Assembly (NCBI GenBank): GCA_964397435.1
Contig: CAYNHU010000003.1
Coordinates: 29,731-91,970 of the forward strand
Source: an uncultured Candidatus Saccharibacteria bacterium
GTDB lineage: Bacteria > Patescibacteriota > Minisyncoccia > Phycocordibacterales > UBA9973
Direction of reading: 5' to 3'
Length of the DNA: 62,240 nucleotides
Of the stretch, positions 50,177 to 58,444 are shown piece by piece. Numbering within the stretch: position 1 is the stretch's first letter; the number at the start of each line of letters is the position of its first letter. The position numbers and the translations under genes are program-made. Below the pieces are notes generated by a model. That model had not been told where the DNA came from. It saw nothing but the letters and a program-made list of their open reading frames with translations, and did no database searches.

Positions 50177-50249
50177 GCGCGGTTAGCTCAGTTGGTAGAG
50201 CGACCCCTTGACGTGGGGTAGGCCAGGGGTTCGAATCCCTTACCGCGCA
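50177..50249 (+). tRNA. tRNA-Val (anticodon GAC)
   Basis: The sequence reads GCGCGGT TA GCTC AGTTGGTA GAGC G ACCCC TTGACGT GGGGT AGGCC AGGGG TTCGAAT CCCTT ACCGCGC A, followed by CC then T. Confidence 0.9.
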
Positions 50250-50257
50250 CCTTATAT

Positions 50258-50815
50258 ATGGCAAAAATCACACTCTTTGGTCTCGCCGGCACTGGAAAAT
50301 CATCGACAGCAAAATTAGTTGCTGACGCTTTGCAGTACGAATATCTTTCAACCGGAAACATGTTTCGTAATATGGCAAAAGAAGCTGGGTACGACAACTT
50401 GAATCAGTTTGAAGAAGAAGTCTGCCAGAAAGATCCTGAGTTCGACAAAAAGCTTGATGCTAAGACAGAGACATACGGAAAAACACACGATAATTTTTTC
50501 TTTGAATCTCGTTTGGCATGGTACTTTATCCCCGACTCTTTTAAAATCATGCTTGTCTGTCCAGGTGAAGCGCGTTTTGAACGTATTGCTCACCGTGAAA
50601 ACAAAACTATTGAACAAGCAAAAGCTGAAACACTCCACCGAGAAGAATCAATCTACACTCGATTCAAAAACTACTACAATATCTCGGACATTAATGATCC
50701 GTCACACTACGATTTAATTATCGACACCAATGCCAATAATCTCGAACAGGTTGTAGCACTTATTCTCCGTGAACTCGCTGAACGCGGTATCACACAAACT
50801 ACTCAACAAAAATAG
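50258..50815 (+). CDS. P-loop NMP kinase, cytidylate-kinase-2-like
   Basis: MAKITLFGLAGTGKSSTAKLVA (Walker A), then an archaeal-type Cmk-like layout. Confidence 0.55.
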   Translation: MAKITLFGLAGTGKSSTAKLVADALQYEYLSTGNMFRNMAKEAGYDNLNQFEEEVCQKDPEFDKKLDAKTETYGKTHDNFFFESRLAWYFIPDSFKIMLVCPGEARFERIAHRENKTIEQAKAETLHREESIYTRFKNYYNISDINDPSHYDLIIDTNANNLEQVVALILRELAERGITQTTQQK

Positions 50816-51824
50816 GTTCTGGTTCGATGGCTACGCCGAATTTCTCAAGAACGTTTCGCTGGATTCGCGCAACGAGTGTTCGAAGTTCGTGACTTGTCGC
50901 AGTGCCTTTATTAACGATAACCATGGCATTGCCTGGATAGCACATGAGTGTGCCAAAATCTTTGCCTCGATATCCAAGTGTTTCAAGCATCCAACCTGCA
51001 CCGACTTTAACAGTTGCTTCATCTACTGGAAATATAACTGCGTTATCGAACTCCGCTTTGAGTTTGTTTCCTTGCTCAACTGGTATAAATGGATTTTTAA
51101 AAAATGAACCTACTGAAGCAATTTCTTGTGGATCAGGAAGTTTGTTTTTTCGTATTGCAATAATTACCTGTCGGATTTGTGCGAGTGTTGGCTCGTGAAT
51201 ATCATGCGCTTCAAAGTATGCTGTTACTCCAGGATACTGTGGTACTCGTGCTGGTTGTTTAGAGAGAATAAAATCAACTGAAACAATGATGTATCTACCC
51301 TTTTCTTCATTTTTGAAAATACTGTCTCGATAACCAAACTTACATTCTCTGTTCGCAAGCACAACAAAACGCTGCTTTTTACGATCAAATGCTTCAACGG
51401 TCACAATGGTGTCTTTGACTTCCTGTCCGTACGCACCGACATTTTGAACTGGCGTACCACCAACAAAGCCTGGAATAGCACTGAGTGCTTCCATACCAGA
51501 GAGATTCATTGCAACAGTGCGATCAACAACACTATCCCATACTTCACCTGCACCACACTGAATTACCACAGTATGATTATCTTCTGCGATAACTTCAAAC
51601 CCTGGAATAGCAATCATAAGTACTAACGCCTGCATATAGGGCTGAGTAAAAATCGTATTTGAACCTCCTCCGATCACTACCACAGGAACACCCTGTTTGG
51701 ATGCAAACAAAAGTGCGGGCTGGATATCATTTTTATCAGTAATCTCTGCAAAATACGCCGCCTGCGCCTGCATACGAAAGGTTGAGAGCTTGGTAAGATC
51801 TTTGTTTTCCTCGATTTGTAACAT
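50799..51824 (-). CDS. murB: UDP-N-acetylenolpyruvoylglucosamine reductase
   Basis: FAD-binding PCMH region (VVVIGGGSNTIF), a GSFFKNP-type motif and the MurB C-terminal domain. Confidence 0.9.
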   Translation of the reverse strand: MLQIEENKDLTKLSTFRMQAQAAYFAEITDKNDIQPALLFASKQGVPVVVIGGGSNTIFTQPYMQALVLMIAIPGFEVIAEDNHTVVIQCGAGEVWDSVVDRTVAMNLSGMEALSAIPGFVGGTPVQNVGAYGQEVKDTIVTVEAFDRKKQRFVVLANRECKFGYRDSIFKNEEKGRYIIVSVDFILSKQPARVPQYPGVTAYFEAHDIHEPTLAQIRQVIIAIRKNKLPDPQEIASVGSFFKNPFIPVEQGNKLKAEFDNAVIFPVDEATVKVGAGWMLETLGYRGKDFGTLMCYPGNAMVIVNKGTATSHELRTLVARIQRNVLEKFGVAIEPEPIFVE

Positions 51825-51831
51825 ATTGCAA

Positions 51832-51851
51832 TTATATCATATATGATATAA
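51832..51851. promoter_or_regulatory. perfect 20-bp palindrome (TTATATCATATATGATATAA) in the murB/murA divergent spacer; candidate operator overlapping both -10 boxes
   Basis: I checked it base by base: positions 51832-51841 are the reverse complement of 51842-51851. The minus-strand TATAAT (51831-36) lies 6 nt from the murB ATG. The plus-strand TATAAA (51847-52) lies 9 nt from the murA ATG. Confidence 0.55.
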
Positions 51852-51861
51852 AATACCAATT

Positions 51862-53388
51862 ATGGCTCAACACCAACCAAGTGAACAAGAGAAGGTCGGA
51901 TTCTTCATTAAACGCCTCCGCGAACAGCGCGGCATGACGCAAGCAGAATTTGCTAAAGCACTCAACACCTCACAGAGTGCTGTTGCGCGTATCGAAAGTG
52001 GCGGTCAAAATCTGACTGTTGATCAACTTGCAAAAATCGGCGATGTTCTTGACCGTAAAATACTTTCCCTTTCAGATGATTCAGTCGATTTCCAAATCGA
52101 AGGTGGTCACAAACTCTCAGGGACTATCGAAACAAACTTTTCAAAAAACGGTGCAGTCGCATTGATTCCTGCTGCACTTCTCAATAAAGCACCAACGATT
52201 CTGCATGGTATTCCTAAAATCGAAGAAGTATTTCGTCAGATTGAATTAATGAAATCAATCGGCGTCGATGTTCAATGGGTCAAAGAAAACACTCTTAAAA
52301 TCACTCCACCAAAATCATACAACCTCAAAACAATTAACGCTGAGGTCGCAAAGAAGATTCGCGTTTCATTGTATTTGTTTGGTGCACTCGGCAAGCAAGT
52401 TCCATCATTTTCACTTCCCCACTCAGGTGGTTGTAAAATGGGCAAACGTACAATCAAAGCACACGAAGCAGGGCTCCGTGATTTAGGACTTGCCATCAAA
52501 ACAACTGATGATGCGTACGTTGTCAGTCACACAAAACTCCATGGCGGAGAAGTCACCTTGTATGAATCAAGTGATATGGCAACAATCAATATTTTGTTGC
52601 TCGCTGCGCAGATTCCAGAAGAAACAACTATTTACTTTGCACAAGCAAACTACATGGTTCAAGATGTTTGTTTCTTCCTTGAGGCACTCGGTGTTTCAAT
52701 AGAAGGTATTGGATCAAGTACGCTCCGTGTACGCGGTCTCGCGACAATCAACAAACAACTTGAATACACCAACAGTGAAGATCCGATTGAATCAATGATG
52801 TGGATTGCTGCGGCAGTAATGACTAAATCAAAGCTCACTATCACACGCTGTCCAATTGAATTTCTCCGTCGTGAACTTATCACGCTTGGTGACATGGGAG
52901 TGAAGTATAAAACAAGTAAGACCTACACATCACACAACGGTAAAACAAAATTGGTTGATATCACCGTACAGCCATCAGTACTCAAAGCTCCAGATGAAAA
53001 AATCCACGCTGTTCCATATCCAGGTATCAACACTGACAACCTTCCATTTTTTGTTCCTCTTGCAACACAAGCAGCAGGAACAACCATGATTCACGATTGG
53101 ATGTGGGAAAACCGCGCAATCTATTTCACTGAACTTAATCGTTTGGGTGCAAACGTAACACTCGCCGATCCACACCGTGCATTCATTAACGGTCCATCAA
53201 AATTGAAAGCTGCTCAAGTTGTCTGCCCTCCAGCACTTCGTCCTGCAACAACTATTTTGATTGCAATGCTTGGCGCAGAAGGCACATCAACACTCCGAAA
53301 CGTCTACTCAATCAAACGTGGCTACGCCGAAATTGCGGAACGCCTTAATTCAATCGGTGCGCATATTAAAGTTTTGAAAGGAATGTAA
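51862..53388 (+). CDS. murA: XRE-family HTH domain fused to UDP-N-acetylglucosamine 1-carboxyvinyltransferase
   Basis: Residues about 12-68, FFIKRLREQRGMTQAEFAKALNTSQSAVARIESGGQNLTVDQLAKIG, form a Cro/C1-type HTH. From about residue 75 it is MurA-like (FQIEGGHKLSGTIETNFSKNGAVAL, active-site LPHSGGCKMGKR, FPTD-like INTDN, LRPATT, KRGY). It is one continuous 508-codon ORF. Confidence 0.85.
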   Translation: MAQHQPSEQEKVGFFIKRLREQRGMTQAEFAKALNTSQSAVARIESGGQNLTVDQLAKIGDVLDRKILSLSDDSVDFQIEGGHKLSGTIETNFSKNGAVALIPAALLNKAPTILHGIPKIEEVFRQIELMKSIGVDVQWVKENTLKITPPKSYNLKTINAEVAKKIRVSLYLFGALGKQVPSFSLPHSGGCKMGKRTIKAHEAGLRDLGLAIKTTDDAYVVSHTKLHGGEVTLYESSDMATINILLLAAQIPEETTIYFAQANYMVQDVCFFLEALGVSIEGIGSSTLRVRGLATINKQLEYTNSEDPIESMMWIAAAVMTKSKLTITRCPIEFLRRELITLGDMGVKYKTSKTYTSHNGKTKLVDITVQPSVLKAPDEKIHAVPYPGINTDNLPFFVPLATQAAGTTMIHDWMWENRAIYFTELNRLGANVTLADPHRAFINGPSKLKAAQVVCPPALRPATTILIAMLGAEGTSTLRNVYSIKRGYAEIAERLNSIGAHIKVLKGM

Positions 53389-53393
53389 GGAAC

Positions 53394-54590
53394 ATGAAAC
53401 GCGCAATAATTATTCTCGGTATCGAAACTTCATGTGATGACACAGGTATTGCATTACTCAAAGCAACACACGGAGCAAAAGATACAACATATACAACACT
53501 CGCAAACGAACTCAGTTCGCAAACAAAACTCCATGAACAATATGGTGGTGTGTTTCCTGCGATGGCAAAACGTGAACATGCGCGAAATATCATGCCATTG
53601 TTTGTGCAGGCGCTTACCAATGCGGGACTTTTACAAGCACGCAAAAAAACATACACACTTCCCTCTACTCTCTACAAAAAACTAACAAAAATACTCGAAC
53701 GCGAACCTGAAATACTCGAAGTGTTGGTTGCATTCGTCACTGCATATGAAATTCCTAAGATTGATATAATCGCAGTAACAAGTGGTCCGGGACTCGAACC
53801 GACATTGTGGGTTGGTATTAGTTTTGCAAAAGCACTGGGAGTGATATTTGATATACCAGTCATTCCAACAAATCACATGGAGGGACATATCGTATCAGTC
53901 GCCATTCCTGAAGGAACAACATTTACCGTCACACCAAAAACATTTCAATTTCCAATGCTTGCCCTCTTGGTTTCTGGTGGACACACTGAACTTGTGTTAG
54001 TGAAAAATATTGGGTCATACAAACTCATCGGACAAACTCGTGACGATGCAGCTGGTGAAGCATTTGATAAAGTGGCGCGCATGCTTGGCATTCCATATCC
54101 TGGTGGTCCTGAGATTTCTCGATTGGCACAACAAGCACGTGAGACACTCGCCTTTTCTGAGTTTTCGTTTCCTCGACCAATGATTCACTCGAGCGATTTT
54201 GATTTTTCATTTTCGGGACTCAAAACAGCTGTGCTCTACGCACTCCGCGATCTTCAAGGAGAGCTTTCTGATTCACGTAAAAAAGATGTATCGCGTGAAT
54301 TCGAAGATGCTGTTGTCGAAGTGCTTGTATACAAAACACTTCGCGCCGCGCAAAAATATAAAACAATGGCCATTATTGTTGGTGGCGGCGTATCCGCAAA
54401 CCGACTACTCCGTGCTGAGCTTACTCGTCGCGCACATGAAGTTAATCCAGATCGCACAATTCATTTCCCAACACCTGTGCTCTCACGAGACAACGCGCTC
54501 ATGATCGCACTTGCTGGTCATCTTAAATTCACTCGAACAAAAAAAATCCCCCGAACCATTGTGGCCGAGGGAGACTTACAGTTGGCATAA
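53394..54590 (+). CDS. tsaD: tRNA N6-adenosine threonylcarbamoyltransferase TsaD
   Basis: Motifs ILGIETSCDDTGIAL, NHMEGH, LLVSGGHTEL, DDAAGEAFDK and GGGVSAN. It carries about 40 extra residues between the AGL and IDIIAVTSGPG blocks. Confidence 0.92.
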   Translation: MKRAIIILGIETSCDDTGIALLKATHGAKDTTYTTLANELSSQTKLHEQYGGVFPAMAKREHARNIMPLFVQALTNAGLLQARKKTYTLPSTLYKKLTKILEREPEILEVLVAFVTAYEIPKIDIIAVTSGPGLEPTLWVGISFAKALGVIFDIPVIPTNHMEGHIVSVAIPEGTTFTVTPKTFQFPMLALLVSGGHTELVLVKNIGSYKLIGQTRDDAAGEAFDKVARMLGIPYPGGPEISRLAQQARETLAFSEFSFPRPMIHSSDFDFSFSGLKTAVLYALRDLQGELSDSRKKDVSREFEDAVVEVLVYKTLRAAQKYKTMAIIVGGGVSANRLLRAELTRRAHEVNPDRTIHFPTPVLSRDNALMIALAGHLKFTRTKKIPRTIVAEGDLQLA

Positions 54591-55592: not shown

Positions 55593-55678
55593 AGTAATGA
55601 AGTTTTTATGATTTAAACATAAAAAAATCTTCAGGTCAATTTTTGCAGATTATAGCGTATATGATATAGTCAAAACGT

Positions 55679-58444
55679 ATGGAAAACTACCCAAACATCC
55701 CTGAAAAATTCTTGAAACCGTATGATCCGGGGAGTGTTGAATCTGCTATGTACAAGCGCTGGGAAGACAGCGGCTTTTTTAATCCTGACAACTGTGTAAA
55801 AGCAGGTGTAACTACTCCTGATGCAAAATCATTTACTATCATGATGCCTCCCCCAAACGTGACAGGCGTACTTCACATGGGACATGCAATGATGCTCACA
55901 CTCGAAGATGTCATGATTCGTTTCAAACGCATGCAGGGCTATAAAACACTCTGGCTTCCAGGAACTGATCACGCAGCTATCGCTACTCAGTCAAAAGTTG
56001 AAAAAGAAATTCAGAAAAAGGAGGGCAAATCACGTCACGACCTCGGCCGTGAAGAACTTTTGAAGCGCGTTCAGGAATTTGCACAAAACAGTCATGACAC
56101 TATCGTCTCACAAGTCAAAGTCATGGGCGCTTCGTGTGACTGGTCACGTGAAGCATTTACACTCGATGCAACTCGCAATCGTGCGGTAAACGCTATGTTT
56201 AAAAAAATGTACGATGATGGTTTGATCTATCGCGGTCATCGCATTGTGAACTGGGATCCAAAAGGACAGACAACTATTGCTGACGACGAAATTGTCTACG
56301 AGGAACGCAAAGCAAAACTCTACACATTTAAATACTCAAAAGATTTCCCTATCACAATCTCAACTACTCGTCCTGAAACAAAAGTTGGCGATACTGCAGT
56401 TGCGGTTCATCCAAATGATCCTCGCTACAAAGAATTCATCGGCAAAGAATATGATGCTGTCTTTTGTGGTGTTCCAATTCATGTAAAAATCATCGCTGAT
56501 GAATCTGTAGAGCAAGAATTTGGTACTGGTGCACTCGGTGTTACTCCGGCTCACAGTATGACTGACTGGGAAATTGCTGATCGTCACAACCTCCCTCGCC
56601 CACAAGTTATTAATGAATACGCAAAAATGACTGTCGGCGGAGAAAATCTCCTCGGCAAGAAAACAACTGAAGCCCGCGAAGTAGTCGTGGCATGGCTTCG
56701 CGATGAAGGTTTGCTCGAAAAAGAAGAAGAGGTAAACCAAAATATTTCTACTGCTGAACGAACGGGCGGTATCGTTGAACCACTTCCAAAACTCCAGTGG
56801 TTCGTTGACGTGAACAAAGAATTTGAATTACCTCACTCAAATCTGACAGGCATTTCAAGCGGCACAAAAACAACACTCAAACAAATCATGCGCACAACAG
56901 TTGAGAGTGGTCAGATCAAAATCATGCCTGACTACTTCAACAAGACGTACTTCCACTGGATCGACAACCTTCGTGACTGGTGTATCTCACGACAGATCTG
57001 GTACGGACATCGTGTGCCGGTATGGTACGACAAGGAAAATAATCTACATCTTCCAAAAAAGATTACTCTTTTGCTTGCTCGACATGGAGAAAGTGCGGCA
57101 AACCGCGATAACGTATTTGCAGGTGGTGGATTGGATAGCCCCCTTACTGAACGTGGTGAACAACAAGCAAAAGAACTTGGCGAAAACGTAAAAAATATAA
57201 CACTCGCTGGCATCATCTCTTCAGGAATGATCCGCGGAAAAGAAACTGCTCGCATTGCAGCAGAAACAATCGGTTTTGATACTGCAAAAATAATTGAAAT
57301 TCCTGAATTGCACGAAGTTGTTTCAGAACGTGATGGTAAACCAAAAACTGAAGAGTGGCCAACTCCCAGTTCATTGGTACGCGCAGGTCGCGGAGAAACA
57401 ACTGAACAAATAACTGAGCGCGCAGAAACTGTCATCAAAAAAATTGAAGCGCTTCCAGAAGGAACATACCTTGTTTGCGCGCACAATGCATTCAATTCAT
57501 GCTTACAGGCGCACATCATGGGACTCCGTGGTGAAAAAATCATTGACCACTGGGAAAAAATCGGAATCCGTGAAAATGGATCATATTTTGAAGTAACTCT
57601 CATGGTAAATCCAGAGGGTGATCTTAAACAAGACGAAGACACGCTCGACACATGGTTCTCTTCTGCACTCTGGACATTCTCAACACTTGGCTGGCCTGAC
57701 AAAACAAAAGACCTCGAGGTCTTTCATCCAACAGACGTGCTCGAAACAGGTTACGAAATCCTCTTCTTCTGGGTTGCTCGTATGATTCTCATGACAGGTT
57801 ACGGCCTCGGTGAAATTCCATTCCACACAGTCTATCTCCACGGTACTGTTCGTGACGGTCAGGGACGCAAAATGTCGAAGTCACTCGGCAACGGTATTGA
57901 TCCACTCGATATTGCTCAAAAATACGGCGCAGATGCTGGCCGTATGGCACTTGTTGTTGGAACTGCTGCAGGAACTGATTCAAAGATTTCTGAAGATAAA
58001 ATCAAGGGTTACAAAAACTTTGCAAACAAGTTGTGGAATATCACTCGCTTCATTCTCTCTTCAACAGAAAACGTAGCGCTCGATCCAGCATTTACAGCAT
58101 GGACAGAAACTGACGCAAAGATTCATGATGAATTCACTGCATTCAAAGCTGAAATCACTAAAGAATTCGAAGAATATAAGTTCCATCTTGTATCAGAAAA
58201 ACTTTATCAGTACGCATGGCACACGCTTGCTGATGTATTACTCGAAGAAAGTAAAAAAATATTTGCTGAAGGAAACGATGCAGCCAAAGCTTCGCGCGCG
58301 CAGTTACTCTTGCACACACTCTATGATCTCTTGAAACTGCTCCACCCACTCATGCCATTTGTCACCGAAGAAATCTGGAGTTCACTCCCTGAAAATGACG
58401 GTCGACTTTTAATGGTAACCAAGTGGCCATCACATGAATCCTAA
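55679..58444 (+). CDS. valS: valine--tRNA ligase carrying an internal histidine-phosphatase-like domain
   Basis: Contains PPPNVTGVLHMGHAM (HIGH, residue 66), the editing region, WCISRQIWYGHRVPVWY, an insert of about 195 aa with RHGES and AHN motifs, DTLDTWFSSALW, KMSKS (residues 731-735) and a C-terminal anticodon-binding/coiled region. Confidence 0.93.
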   Translation: MENYPNIPEKFLKPYDPGSVESAMYKRWEDSGFFNPDNCVKAGVTTPDAKSFTIMMPPPNVTGVLHMGHAMMLTLEDVMIRFKRMQGYKTLWLPGTDHAAIATQSKVEKEIQKKEGKSRHDLGREELLKRVQEFAQNSHDTIVSQVKVMGASCDWSREAFTLDATRNRAVNAMFKKMYDDGLIYRGHRIVNWDPKGQTTIADDEIVYEERKAKLYTFKYSKDFPITISTTRPETKVGDTAVAVHPNDPRYKEFIGKEYDAVFCGVPIHVKIIADESVEQEFGTGALGVTPAHSMTDWEIADRHNLPRPQVINEYAKMTVGGENLLGKKTTEAREVVVAWLRDEGLLEKEEEVNQNISTAERTGGIVEPLPKLQWFVDVNKEFELPHSNLTGISSGTKTTLKQIMRTTVESGQIKIMPDYFNKTYFHWIDNLRDWCISRQIWYGHRVPVWYDKENNLHLPKKITLLLARHGESAANRDNVFAGGGLDSPLTERGEQQAKELGENVKNITLAGIISSGMIRGKETARIAAETIGFDTAKIIEIPELHEVVSERDGKPKTEEWPTPSSLVRAGRGETTEQITERAETVIKKIEALPEGTYLVCAHNAFNSCLQAHIMGLRGEKIIDHWEKIGIRENGSYFEVTLMVNPEGDLKQDEDTLDTWFSSALWTFSTLGWPDKTKDLEVFHPTDVLETGYEILFFWVARMILMTGYGLGEIPFHTVYLHGTVRDGQGRKMSKSLGNGIDPLDIAQKYGADAGRMALVVGTAAGTDSKISEDKIKGYKNFANKLWNITRFILSSTENVALDPAFTAWTETDAKIHDEFTAFKAEITKEFEEYKFHLVSEKLYQYAWHTLADVLLEESKKIFAEGNDAAKASRAQLLLHTLYDLLKLLHPLMPFVTEEIWSSLPENDGRLLMVTKWPSHES

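Follow-up and report, generated by a model that had tools for sequence, protein, structure and literature searches.

What is a DNA-binding domain doing on the enzyme that opens peptidoglycan synthesis? The question is raised by a gene for UDP-N-acetylglucosamine (UDP-GlcNAc) 1-carboxyvinyltransferase, MurA, in a stretch of 62,240 nucleotides from contig CAYNHU010000003.1 of an uncultured Candidatus Saccharibacteria bacterium; the whole of this stretch is called the window below. The predicted protein, here termed HTH-MurA, carries an N-terminal helix–turn–helix (HTH) head of the XRE (Cro/C1) type, and its gene faces murB across a short spacer that contains a perfect palindrome. MurA is the gate of peptidoglycan synthesis, a recognized control point and the target of fosfomycin. 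We propose, with a probability of about 0.78, that HTH-MurA is an autorepressing enzyme-repressor which would switch off its own gene and murB at an operator whose arms double as extended −10 boxes; this estimate includes the view that HTH-MurA is bifunctional, with a working MurA joined by a linker of about ten residues to an XRE-type HTH. An earlier note, made from the letters alone, had offered autoregulation of murA and murB through binding of the XRE head to the palindrome as the simplest model. Four independent comparative results, namely the conservation of the operator, its occurrence in toxin–antitoxin (TA) operons, a set of negative controls and a series of pseudoenzyme paralogues, now support that model strongly at the level of sequence comparison.

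The murA gene is one uninterrupted open reading frame (ORF), as the earlier note had read it from the ORF list, with an XRE HTH at its N-terminus and a MurA with the GGCKMGKR cysteine loop in the remainder. A Pfam search bears out both parts: HTH_3 (PF01381) matches residues 16–67 of the 508-residue product (6.2e-14; 52.2 bits, cut-off 23), HTH_31 also matches the head (41 bits, cut-off 27) and EPSP_synthase (PF00275) covers residues 80–495 (2.1e-44). The NCBIfam model for the enzyme, NF006873, is matched at 325.2 bits (cut-off 297); the score against the stricter equivalog TIGR01072, 314.9 bits, lies under its cut-off of 392.7. The closest solved relatives of the head are controller proteins of the C.Esp1396I type and HipB. 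Solved MurAs can be aligned with the body over its full length (PDB code 6q03, 1.6e-51), with the loop GGCKMGKR against GGCAIGTR, and K95/N96, R167, C191, R196, D392, R418, R460 and R486 are matched to solved MurA and invariant in an alignment of 27 sequences with 61–87% identity to the query (alignment A1). Residues S37, Q38, S39, A40, A42, R43, E45, G47, Q49 and N50 of the head are invariant in the same alignment. An AlphaFold2 model (mean predicted local distance difference test score, pLDDT, of 88.7) consists of a four-helix head, a low-confidence linker, which is predicted to be flexible, and the MurA body; block pLDDT in the head is ∼86–89 over the first three helices and ∼67–77 over the fourth. 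A Foldseek search with this model predicts the two-domain inside-out α/β barrel fold for the body, with a target-normalized template-modelling score of 0.92 against the Escherichia coli and Enterobacter cloacae enzymes (PDB codes 1uae and 1a2n). The window contains no other MurA and no other HTH of the subfamily to which the head belongs.

A chimeric join or a frameshift between head and body, against which the earlier note had advised a check, is ruled out, since the identical 1201 bp across the join are present in two separate wastewater-run assemblies (both belonging to one study) and since PF01381 and PF00275 occur together in 120 of the 120 best protein clusters (61–87% identity). These clusters are about 501–518 residues in length, with one of 579 residues, and derive from Patescibacteria, Paceibacterota and Zambryski-, Jorgensen- and Magasanikbacteria; those that bear a name are annotated plainly as MurA or as 'HTH domain-containing protein'. 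Our comparative set comprised the best 80 species-representative genome loci (59–85% identity) out of at least 527 relatives, a figure that does not serve as a count of fusions because one of the two search patterns, GGCKMGxRT, could also match MurAs without an HTH. The fusion is found in the 80 loci. It is also found, with an intact cysteine loop, in protein P0121 (locus L209, contig JAHFZZ010000002.1), where the fetched locus has 70% G+C, and is therefore not restricted to AT-rich Patescibacteria. Our literature searches retrieved no description of an HTH-MurA fusion, in agreement with the earlier statement that no enzyme-repressor fusion was known for MurA. The sole trace is a table in a paper on 5-enolpyruvylshikimate-3-phosphate synthases, which gives HTH_3 as a 'promiscuous', frequent partner of PF00275 without comment; the architecture has therefore been visible in databases and has gone uninterpreted.

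The spacer between the two ATGs of murB and murA measures 37 bp (51825–51861), and the ORF coordinates together with the NCBIfam match of murB uphold the divergent arrangement described earlier. The palindrome was likewise correctly described as perfect over 20 bp: its arms of 10 + 10 bp, 51832–51841 (TTATATCATA) and 51842–51851 (TATGATATAA), are 100% complementary and gapless. No perfect palindrome in the window is longer, but arms of at least 10 bp also arose in 12 of 200 block shuffles. Considered by itself the palindrome is only slightly out of the ordinary; what makes it significant is that other genomes have conserved it. TATATCA-N4-TGATATA is found upstream of HTH-murA in all 75 of the 75 loci with upstream DNA, with at most two mismatches and mostly none. 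The 532 kb of related loci hold 51 exact copies and 74 copies with at most one mismatch, compared with 0.0 and 0.35 in shuffled sequence. When 76 sites are tabulated in a position matrix, each of the 14 positions in the arms is conserved in 64–76 of them, the centre reads Y-A-T-R, and the flanks drop to background with sharp edges. This core, TATATCA-YATR-TGATATA, is near-invariant while the HTH-MurA proteins diverge to 59% identity; the MurB proteins from loci with a conserved operator have diverged to 31–67% identity. The operator of P0121 is a symmetric variant, ATCTCA-TATG-TGAGAT (ATCTCATATGTGAGAT), located 12 nt before the ATG. The exact 18-mer appeared in no paper that our searches reached.

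Divergent murB accompanies HTH-murA in ∼46 of the 80 loci, and in three others (L007, L020 and L032) murB lies in tandem downstream. Some 28 loci without murB as divergent neighbour keep both arms of the operator. The upstream gene in these is often co-directional, and the neighbours include an ABC-type or NRAMP-type transporter gene, a tRNA or a terminator hairpin; co-directional genes, tRNAs or terminators stand upstream of a retained operator in L011, L041, L062, L070–L072, L066, L074 and L077. The persistence of the core in 75 of 75 loci, ∼28 of them lacking divergent murB, is the first argument for autoregulation.

Two candidate extensions of the operator set were rejected. Elsewhere in the related loci, matches with at most two mismatches number 12 against ∼9 expected by chance, and they are not taken as a regulon. 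A site upstream of valS in the window (55649–55668, ATTATAGCGTATATGATATA, two mismatches) was considered as a second operator, but its conservation does not extend beyond the closest relatives, L001 and L112; the valS promoters of L079, L024 and L185 retain a TGnTATAnT extended −10 and have lost the left arm, and the valS-upstream sequence is in all likelihood no more than a promoter of the extended −10 kind. Several loci carry additional sequence between palindrome and gene. L059 and L064 have, some 600 bp upstream of murA, a gene of ∼191 residues that separates HTH-murA from the palindrome and in L064 appears from its sequence to encode a histidine phosphatase; in both genomes the operator heads a two-gene operon. 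Hairpin-ended insertions of 110–250 bp separate the palindrome from the murA ATG in L010, L014, L043, L044 and L063, exactly at the ancestral start codon. Comparison of L010 with L035 reveals terminal inverted repeats (CCCGTTAGAGAT / ATCTCTAACGGG) and a duplication of ATGA, resembling a miniature inverted-repeat transposable element, and a search of these five insertions against Rfam recovered flanking tRNAs only.

The second argument concerns the relatives of the head. A metagenome scan with the exact 18-mer returned 120 loci, and ∼0.7 Mb was fetched around the sites. In 46 of the 120, either a gene of a TA module or a subfamily HTH is found within 800 bp; 45 of these have the HTH and one has a toxin only, and 14 of the 45 also have a Gp49 toxin match within 800 bp. 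With a profile of the MurA head, an HTH is detected within ∼530 bp of the site in the 45 loci and nowhere else in the ∼0.7 Mb, a strict association of operator and HTH subfamily. About 25 of the 45 loci are HTH-murA. The other ∼20 are two-gene TA operons with a Gp49/DUF891 (HigB-like) toxin (PF05973, 1.7e-18) followed by an XRE antitoxin (HTH_3) of ∼100 residues. Of the stand-alone relatives of the head, the antitoxin HTH comes closest (45% identity over 58 residues, pairwise E value 1e-16), and the two have T-x-Q-S-x-[IV]-A-R-[MI]-E-x-G-x-Q-N in common; the recognition-helix segment TSQSAVARIE of HTH-MurA is similar in the antitoxins and identical in the pseudoenzyme paralogues described below. 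A stand-alone HTH of 74 residues with an identical TSQSAVARMESGKQN segment has the palindrome ∼60 bp upstream. The promoters of the TA operons read TTGACA, one nucleotide, then the palindrome, the last TA of which starts the −10; the order in the window, TTGCAA, one nucleotide, palindrome, TAAAAT, has the same geometry. HigA-like antitoxins of Gp49 modules are known to repress their own promoters (PMC5906591), and the sharing of palindrome and geometry with modules whose HTH is 45% identical supports autoregulation of murA. The homology of both HTH and promoter-operator to HigA-like antitoxin modules further suggests such a module as their possible source. No toxin gene is present beside murA in the window, where its neighbours are murB and tsaD, and because it has no toxin partner HTH-MurA is not an antitoxin. 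Separately from these operons, a longer hairpin (CCCATTATATCATATATGATATAATGGG) that contains the 18-mer occurs in L096, L127, L130, L143, L151, L175, L179, L183 and L184, on contigs of 46–51% G+C with no related HTH nearby.

Third, the palindrome is missing where a functional head is missing. In the three control loci, L201, L207 and L208, no site with three or fewer mismatches was found upstream of murA. These controls are the nearest head-less MurAs, P0122 and P0123 (53% and 52% identity to the MurA part), and P0125, a fusion with a decayed head and an intact cysteine loop. This absence from the closest HTH-less MurAs and from the decayed-HTH fusion argues for autoregulation. A partial correspondence between head and operator was also seen. 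Symmetric changes at position 5 of the half-site occur in L050 and L053 (TATAGCA..TGCTATA) and in L068 (TATAACA..TGTTATA), and all three carry a substitution of Ser37, with which the recognition helix begins (TTQS, TTQS and TAQS, respectively), while none of the 70 fusion-locus proteins with Ser37 shows a symmetric change at this position (Fisher test, ∼1.5e-4, phylogeny not corrected).

The fourth argument comes from paralogues that have lost the active site. An exhaustive search of the representatives yielded HTH-MurA-like proteins at 29–39% identity (P0128, P0131, P0132, P0133, P0135 and P0200), and we examined loci L202–L206, L210 and L211. These proteins keep TSQSA[VI]ARIE.G.QN and are without the cysteine loop and the equivalents of Arg91, Arg120, Arg371 and Arg397. 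Most of the loci adjoin intact murA–murB, ddl, Mur-ligase or sugar-nucleotide genes, with the palindrome. In the P0128 and P0133 lineages, murB and an intact stand-alone murA (PGGC.LG.RS) run leftward from the palindrome and HTH-pseudoMurA, followed by ddl and/or a Mur ligase, runs rightward; in that of P0131, murA and a Mur ligase lie to the left, and HTH-pseudoMurA and a Mur ligase to the right. In the P0132 lineage the palindrome heads an operon of NUDIX, nucleotidyltransferase and HTH-pseudoMurA genes, with a second site inside the operon, and P0135 follows an alanine-racemase-like ORF, with no site within its 2.7 kb contig. These arrangements show the same head and operator in apparent control of peptidoglycan-precursor genes after the separation of enzyme and regulator, and thereby add to the case for autoregulation. 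That the pseudoenzymes retain head and operator beside precursor genes identifies regulation as the likely selected function of the head, and it hints that the MurA fold may have a non-catalytic role, as a sensor or in oligomerization.

These results lead us to envisage the following mechanism. Two HTH heads, presumably as a dimer, would each take one arm of TATATCA-N4-TGATATA; the centres of the half-sites lie 11 bp, or one helical turn, from each other. Each arm would at the same time provide the TG-extended −10 of a promoter, the murA promoter pointing rightward and that of murB, back to back with it, leftward (Table 1); for murA an alternative extended −10 (TGATATAAA, 51844–52) is available. 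The murA ATG starts 7 nt after the predicted −10, with transcription expected to start at about 51859–51862, and the predicted +1 of murB coincides with the A of its ATG (51824). The gap between core and ATG is 8–10 nt for murB in 35 of 46 loci and 8–12 nt for murA in 42 of 75. As a gap of 8 nt is accounted for by the last 2 nt of TATAnn plus 6 nt, +1 should fall on the A of the ATG, and transcription of both genes would begin at the start codon or within a few bases of it, giving transcripts that are leaderless or nearly so. Because the operator overlaps both TG/−10 elements, a bound operator should keep RNA polymerase off both promoters. Negative autoregulation would result, with transcription of murA (with tsaD) and murB set by the concentration of MurA.

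Several observations weigh against this proposal. MurA is usually described as a monomer, and the two heads would need some means of dimerization. Since both arms fit the extended −10, part of their conservation is owed to RNA polymerase. The negative controls are three loci only. Transcript coverage amounts to one metatranscriptome contig, which spans only 51887–52042. Among the 120 exact 18-mer matches in metagenomes, 74 are unrelated, being AT-rich low-complexity repeats or a longer CCCATTATATCA...TGATATAATGGG hairpin, and the 18-mer sequence alone is therefore not diagnostic. The correspondence at residue 37 has exceptions as well: in P0133 Ser37 is kept together with A/G at position 5, which led us to drop the idea of a strict code linking this residue to position 5 of the half-site, and in L073 and L079 Ala37 is paired with an operator that is asymmetric.

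Four other explanations of the locus were weighed against the autorepressor. The earlier note had itself raised the alternative that the palindrome is merely two back-to-back −10 boxes, in which case RNA polymerase alone would read it. Part of this stands. Both arms fit the extended −10 form TGnTATAnn (each reads TGATATAnn) and are placed for the predicted leaderless transcripts, the modal gap of 8 nt being the sum of 2 nt of the −10 and 6 nt up to +1; the form TGnTATAnT recurs at other promoters of these genomes, 6–9 nt before the ATG and with a variable 'n' and no left arm (valS in L079, L024 and L185; murA in L207). What does not stand is the restriction to promoters. The left arm persists in the ∼28 loci where no divergent murB is transcribed leftward, which excludes a reading as two promoters only, and the same palindrome sits inside the −35/−10 spacer of the TA operons. 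The 'n' of TGn is A in 71 of 76 sites, the would-be −7 T of the −10 hexamer is not conserved, and the spacing of the arms is fixed; a fixed 'n' with a free −7 T signifies that a constraint other than RNA polymerase acts on the operator. The HTH-less murA of L207 retains an extended −10 (TGCTATACT, 6 nt before the ATG) without the palindrome, and TGATATA is not enriched as a general promoter word, with nine copies on both strands of the window against ∼15 expected. We regard the promoter-only explanation as very improbable. Even less credence is given to the idea that the head is a protein–protein module that tethers MurA to the cell-wall machinery, the palindrome being unrelated to it. The model for such a role is RodZ, in which an XRE-like head binds MreB; however, the RodZ-type family HTH_25 is not among the eight Pfam matches of HTH-MurA at E ≤ 0.01, the best of which are HTH_3 and HTH_31, and tethering would leave unexplained the co-occurrence with the operator, the operator held in common with antitoxins and the pseudoenzymes beside murA–murB.

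The two remaining explanations accept the palindrome as an operator. Its reader could be a separate, free XRE protein such as a HigA-like antitoxin, the MurA head having another role or being a relic, and the near-identical recognition helix of free antitoxins and of the 74-residue HTH, together with the operator that they share with HTH-murA, would fit such a reader. Against it stand the strong purifying selection on the fused head, with a recognition helix that is invariant across the 27 sequences of A1, and the distribution of the site, present with all 75 fusions and absent in the three controls without a functional head. The window, moreover, offers no second HTH of the subfamily as a reader, and the operator variants follow residue 37 of the fused head. 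We consider a separate reader quite unlikely. HTH-MurA might also bind the palindrome and activate, for instance by recruiting polymerase to weak −35 elements, an idea that gains something from −35 hexamers with only four matches out of six and from the ability of some XRE proteins to activate. In both promoters, nevertheless, the site extends over the spacer and the TG/−10 element, where a repressor acting by occlusion classically sits, and the homologous antitoxin systems are autorepressors (PMC5906591). Activation is thus unlikely in our estimation, if slightly less so than a separate reader, and repression of both genes by HTH-MurA remains the reading that we prefer.

Table 1. Positions of the features of the murB–murA–tsaD region, in window coordinates
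Feature	Position	Strand	Details
murB (UDP-N-acetylmuramate dehydrogenase)	50799..51824	−	341 residues; NF000755, 353 bits
Predicted murA promoter	51826..51854	+	−35 TTGCAA (51826–31), 17 bp spacer, −10 TAAAAT (51849–54); scan 9/12
Predicted murB promoter	51831..51859	−	−35 TTGGTA (51859–54), 17 bp spacer, TG-extended −10 TATAAT (51836–31); scan 10/12
Candidate 18 bp operator core, TATATCA-TATA-TGATATA	51833..51850	.	Perfect palindrome extends to 51832–51851
HTH-MurA gene	51862..53388	+	508 codons plus stop; single ORF; Pfam and NCBIfam; AlphaFold2; Foldseek
XRE/Cro-C1 HTH domain	51907..52062	+	Residues 16–67; PF01381; predicted helices 8–22, 27–33, 38–45, 53–63
Recognition-helix segment TSQSAVARIE	51967..51996	+	Residues 36–45; invariance in alignment A1
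Short flexible linker (predicted)	52051..52083	+	Residues 64–74; AlphaFold2 pLDDT drop, below 50 at residues 69–72
MurA catalytic body	52084..53385	+	Residues 75–508; Cys191 = 52432–52434, in GGCKMGKR loop
tsaD	53394..54590	+	PF00814, 1.7e-76; 5 bp after murA stop

With tsaD following so closely, murA and tsaD are probably co-transcribed. On the other side, a tRNA-Val(GAC) gene (50177–50251) follows murB at a distance of ∼550 bp from its 3′ end, and a gene resembling that of cytidylate kinase lies in the interval. The valyl-tRNA synthetase encoded by valS (55679–58444) has a His_Phos_1 domain (PF00300, 8.7e-28) inserted at residues 464–621, inside the class-I catalytic domain, which is unusual for this enzyme.

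Several known regulators resemble HTH-MurA in part. BirA, the biotin-protein ligase and bio repressor of E. coli, acts at one palindromic operator between the divergent, overlapping promoters of bioA and bioBFCD. It is like HTH-MurA in having an N-terminal DNA-binding domain on a pathway enzyme and a single operator between divergent promoters, but its domain is a winged HTH, its own gene is not under its control, its DNA binding needs biotinyl-AMP and it has no sequence relationship to HTH-MurA. PutA (proline utilization A) represses its own gene and the divergent putP through shared intergenic sites. It parallels HTH-MurA as an enzyme repressing its own gene and a divergent neighbour, and differs in its ribbon–helix–helix head, its redox-driven switch to membrane binding and its catabolic role. 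BzdR of Azoarcus, an XRE HTH joined to a shikimate-kinase-like domain, and NadR combine the same HTH superfamily with an enzyme-derived domain, and the NCBIfam model PRK08154 matches residues 10–71 of HTH-MurA (3.8e-06). It is the pseudo-MurA paralogues, with a dead enzyme fold behind the head, that resemble BzdR, whereas the body of HTH-MurA, unlike BzdR and NadR, keeps all catalytic residues. The HigA-like antitoxins are the closest stand-alone relatives of the head, with the 18 bp palindrome in the same placement between −35 and −10; HTH-MurA differs from them in lacking an adjacent toxin gene and an N-terminal toxin-binding segment, its head being N-terminal itself and followed by an enzyme of 434 residues. 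A DNA-binding domain together with an intact catalytic domain, and a putative operator at genes of the same pathway, murB encoding the next step, would place HTH-MurA among the enzyme-repressors of the BirA/PutA/NadR kind. By function we would thus group it with BirA and PutA, and by the apparent descent of head and operator with the HigA-like antitoxins.

The control of MurA described so far consists of proteolysis by ClpCP through ReoM/PrkA (PMC7286690), inhibition by IreB (PMC12077105) and activation by CwlM (PMC4946905), and 'dormant' complexes of MurA with UDP-N-acetylmuramate (UDP-MurNAc) are present in the PDB (codes 3swd, 3su9 and 8d84). All of this control is post-translational and needs separate proteins or ligands; none of it operates through a DNA-binding domain on MurA itself. 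The linker is so short, ∼10 residues, that two MurA bodies would sit near each other on the operator, which makes it plausible that the open or closed state of MurA influences operator binding. More tentatively, and along the lines of the ligand coupling suggested in the earlier note, HTH-MurA may be a sensor and regulator in one protein, in which binding of UDP-GlcNAc/phosphoenolpyruvate or of UDP-MurNAc moves the MurA body, shifts the heads on the operator and so gates murA and murB; after duplication, pseudo-MurA transcription factors would have kept the fold as a ligand sensor, controlling murA–murB, ddl, Mur-ligase and sugar-nucleotide genes. We view this extension as possible rather than probable.

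If the autorepressor is real, the cell-wall pathway would be kept in balance in a novel and highly economical way, by a MurA that reads the promoter of its own gene, and such control would be the norm, not an oddity, across much of the Patescibacteria (the candidate phyla radiation), uncultured organisms with tiny genomes whose regulation is almost unknown. The protein and its nearly invariant candidate operator of 18 bp form a defined pair, open to study in vitro or in E. coli with no need to grow the source organisms. The loci described here constitute a natural series from a bifunctional enzyme to a pseudoenzyme regulator with a separate enzyme, a series that is informative on the origin of transcription factors from enzymes, and they form a bridge from the operator modules of toxin–antitoxin systems to housekeeping regulation. 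Should the sensor-regulator also hold true, the supply of cell-wall precursors would directly gate murA and murB in organisms that have very few regulators.

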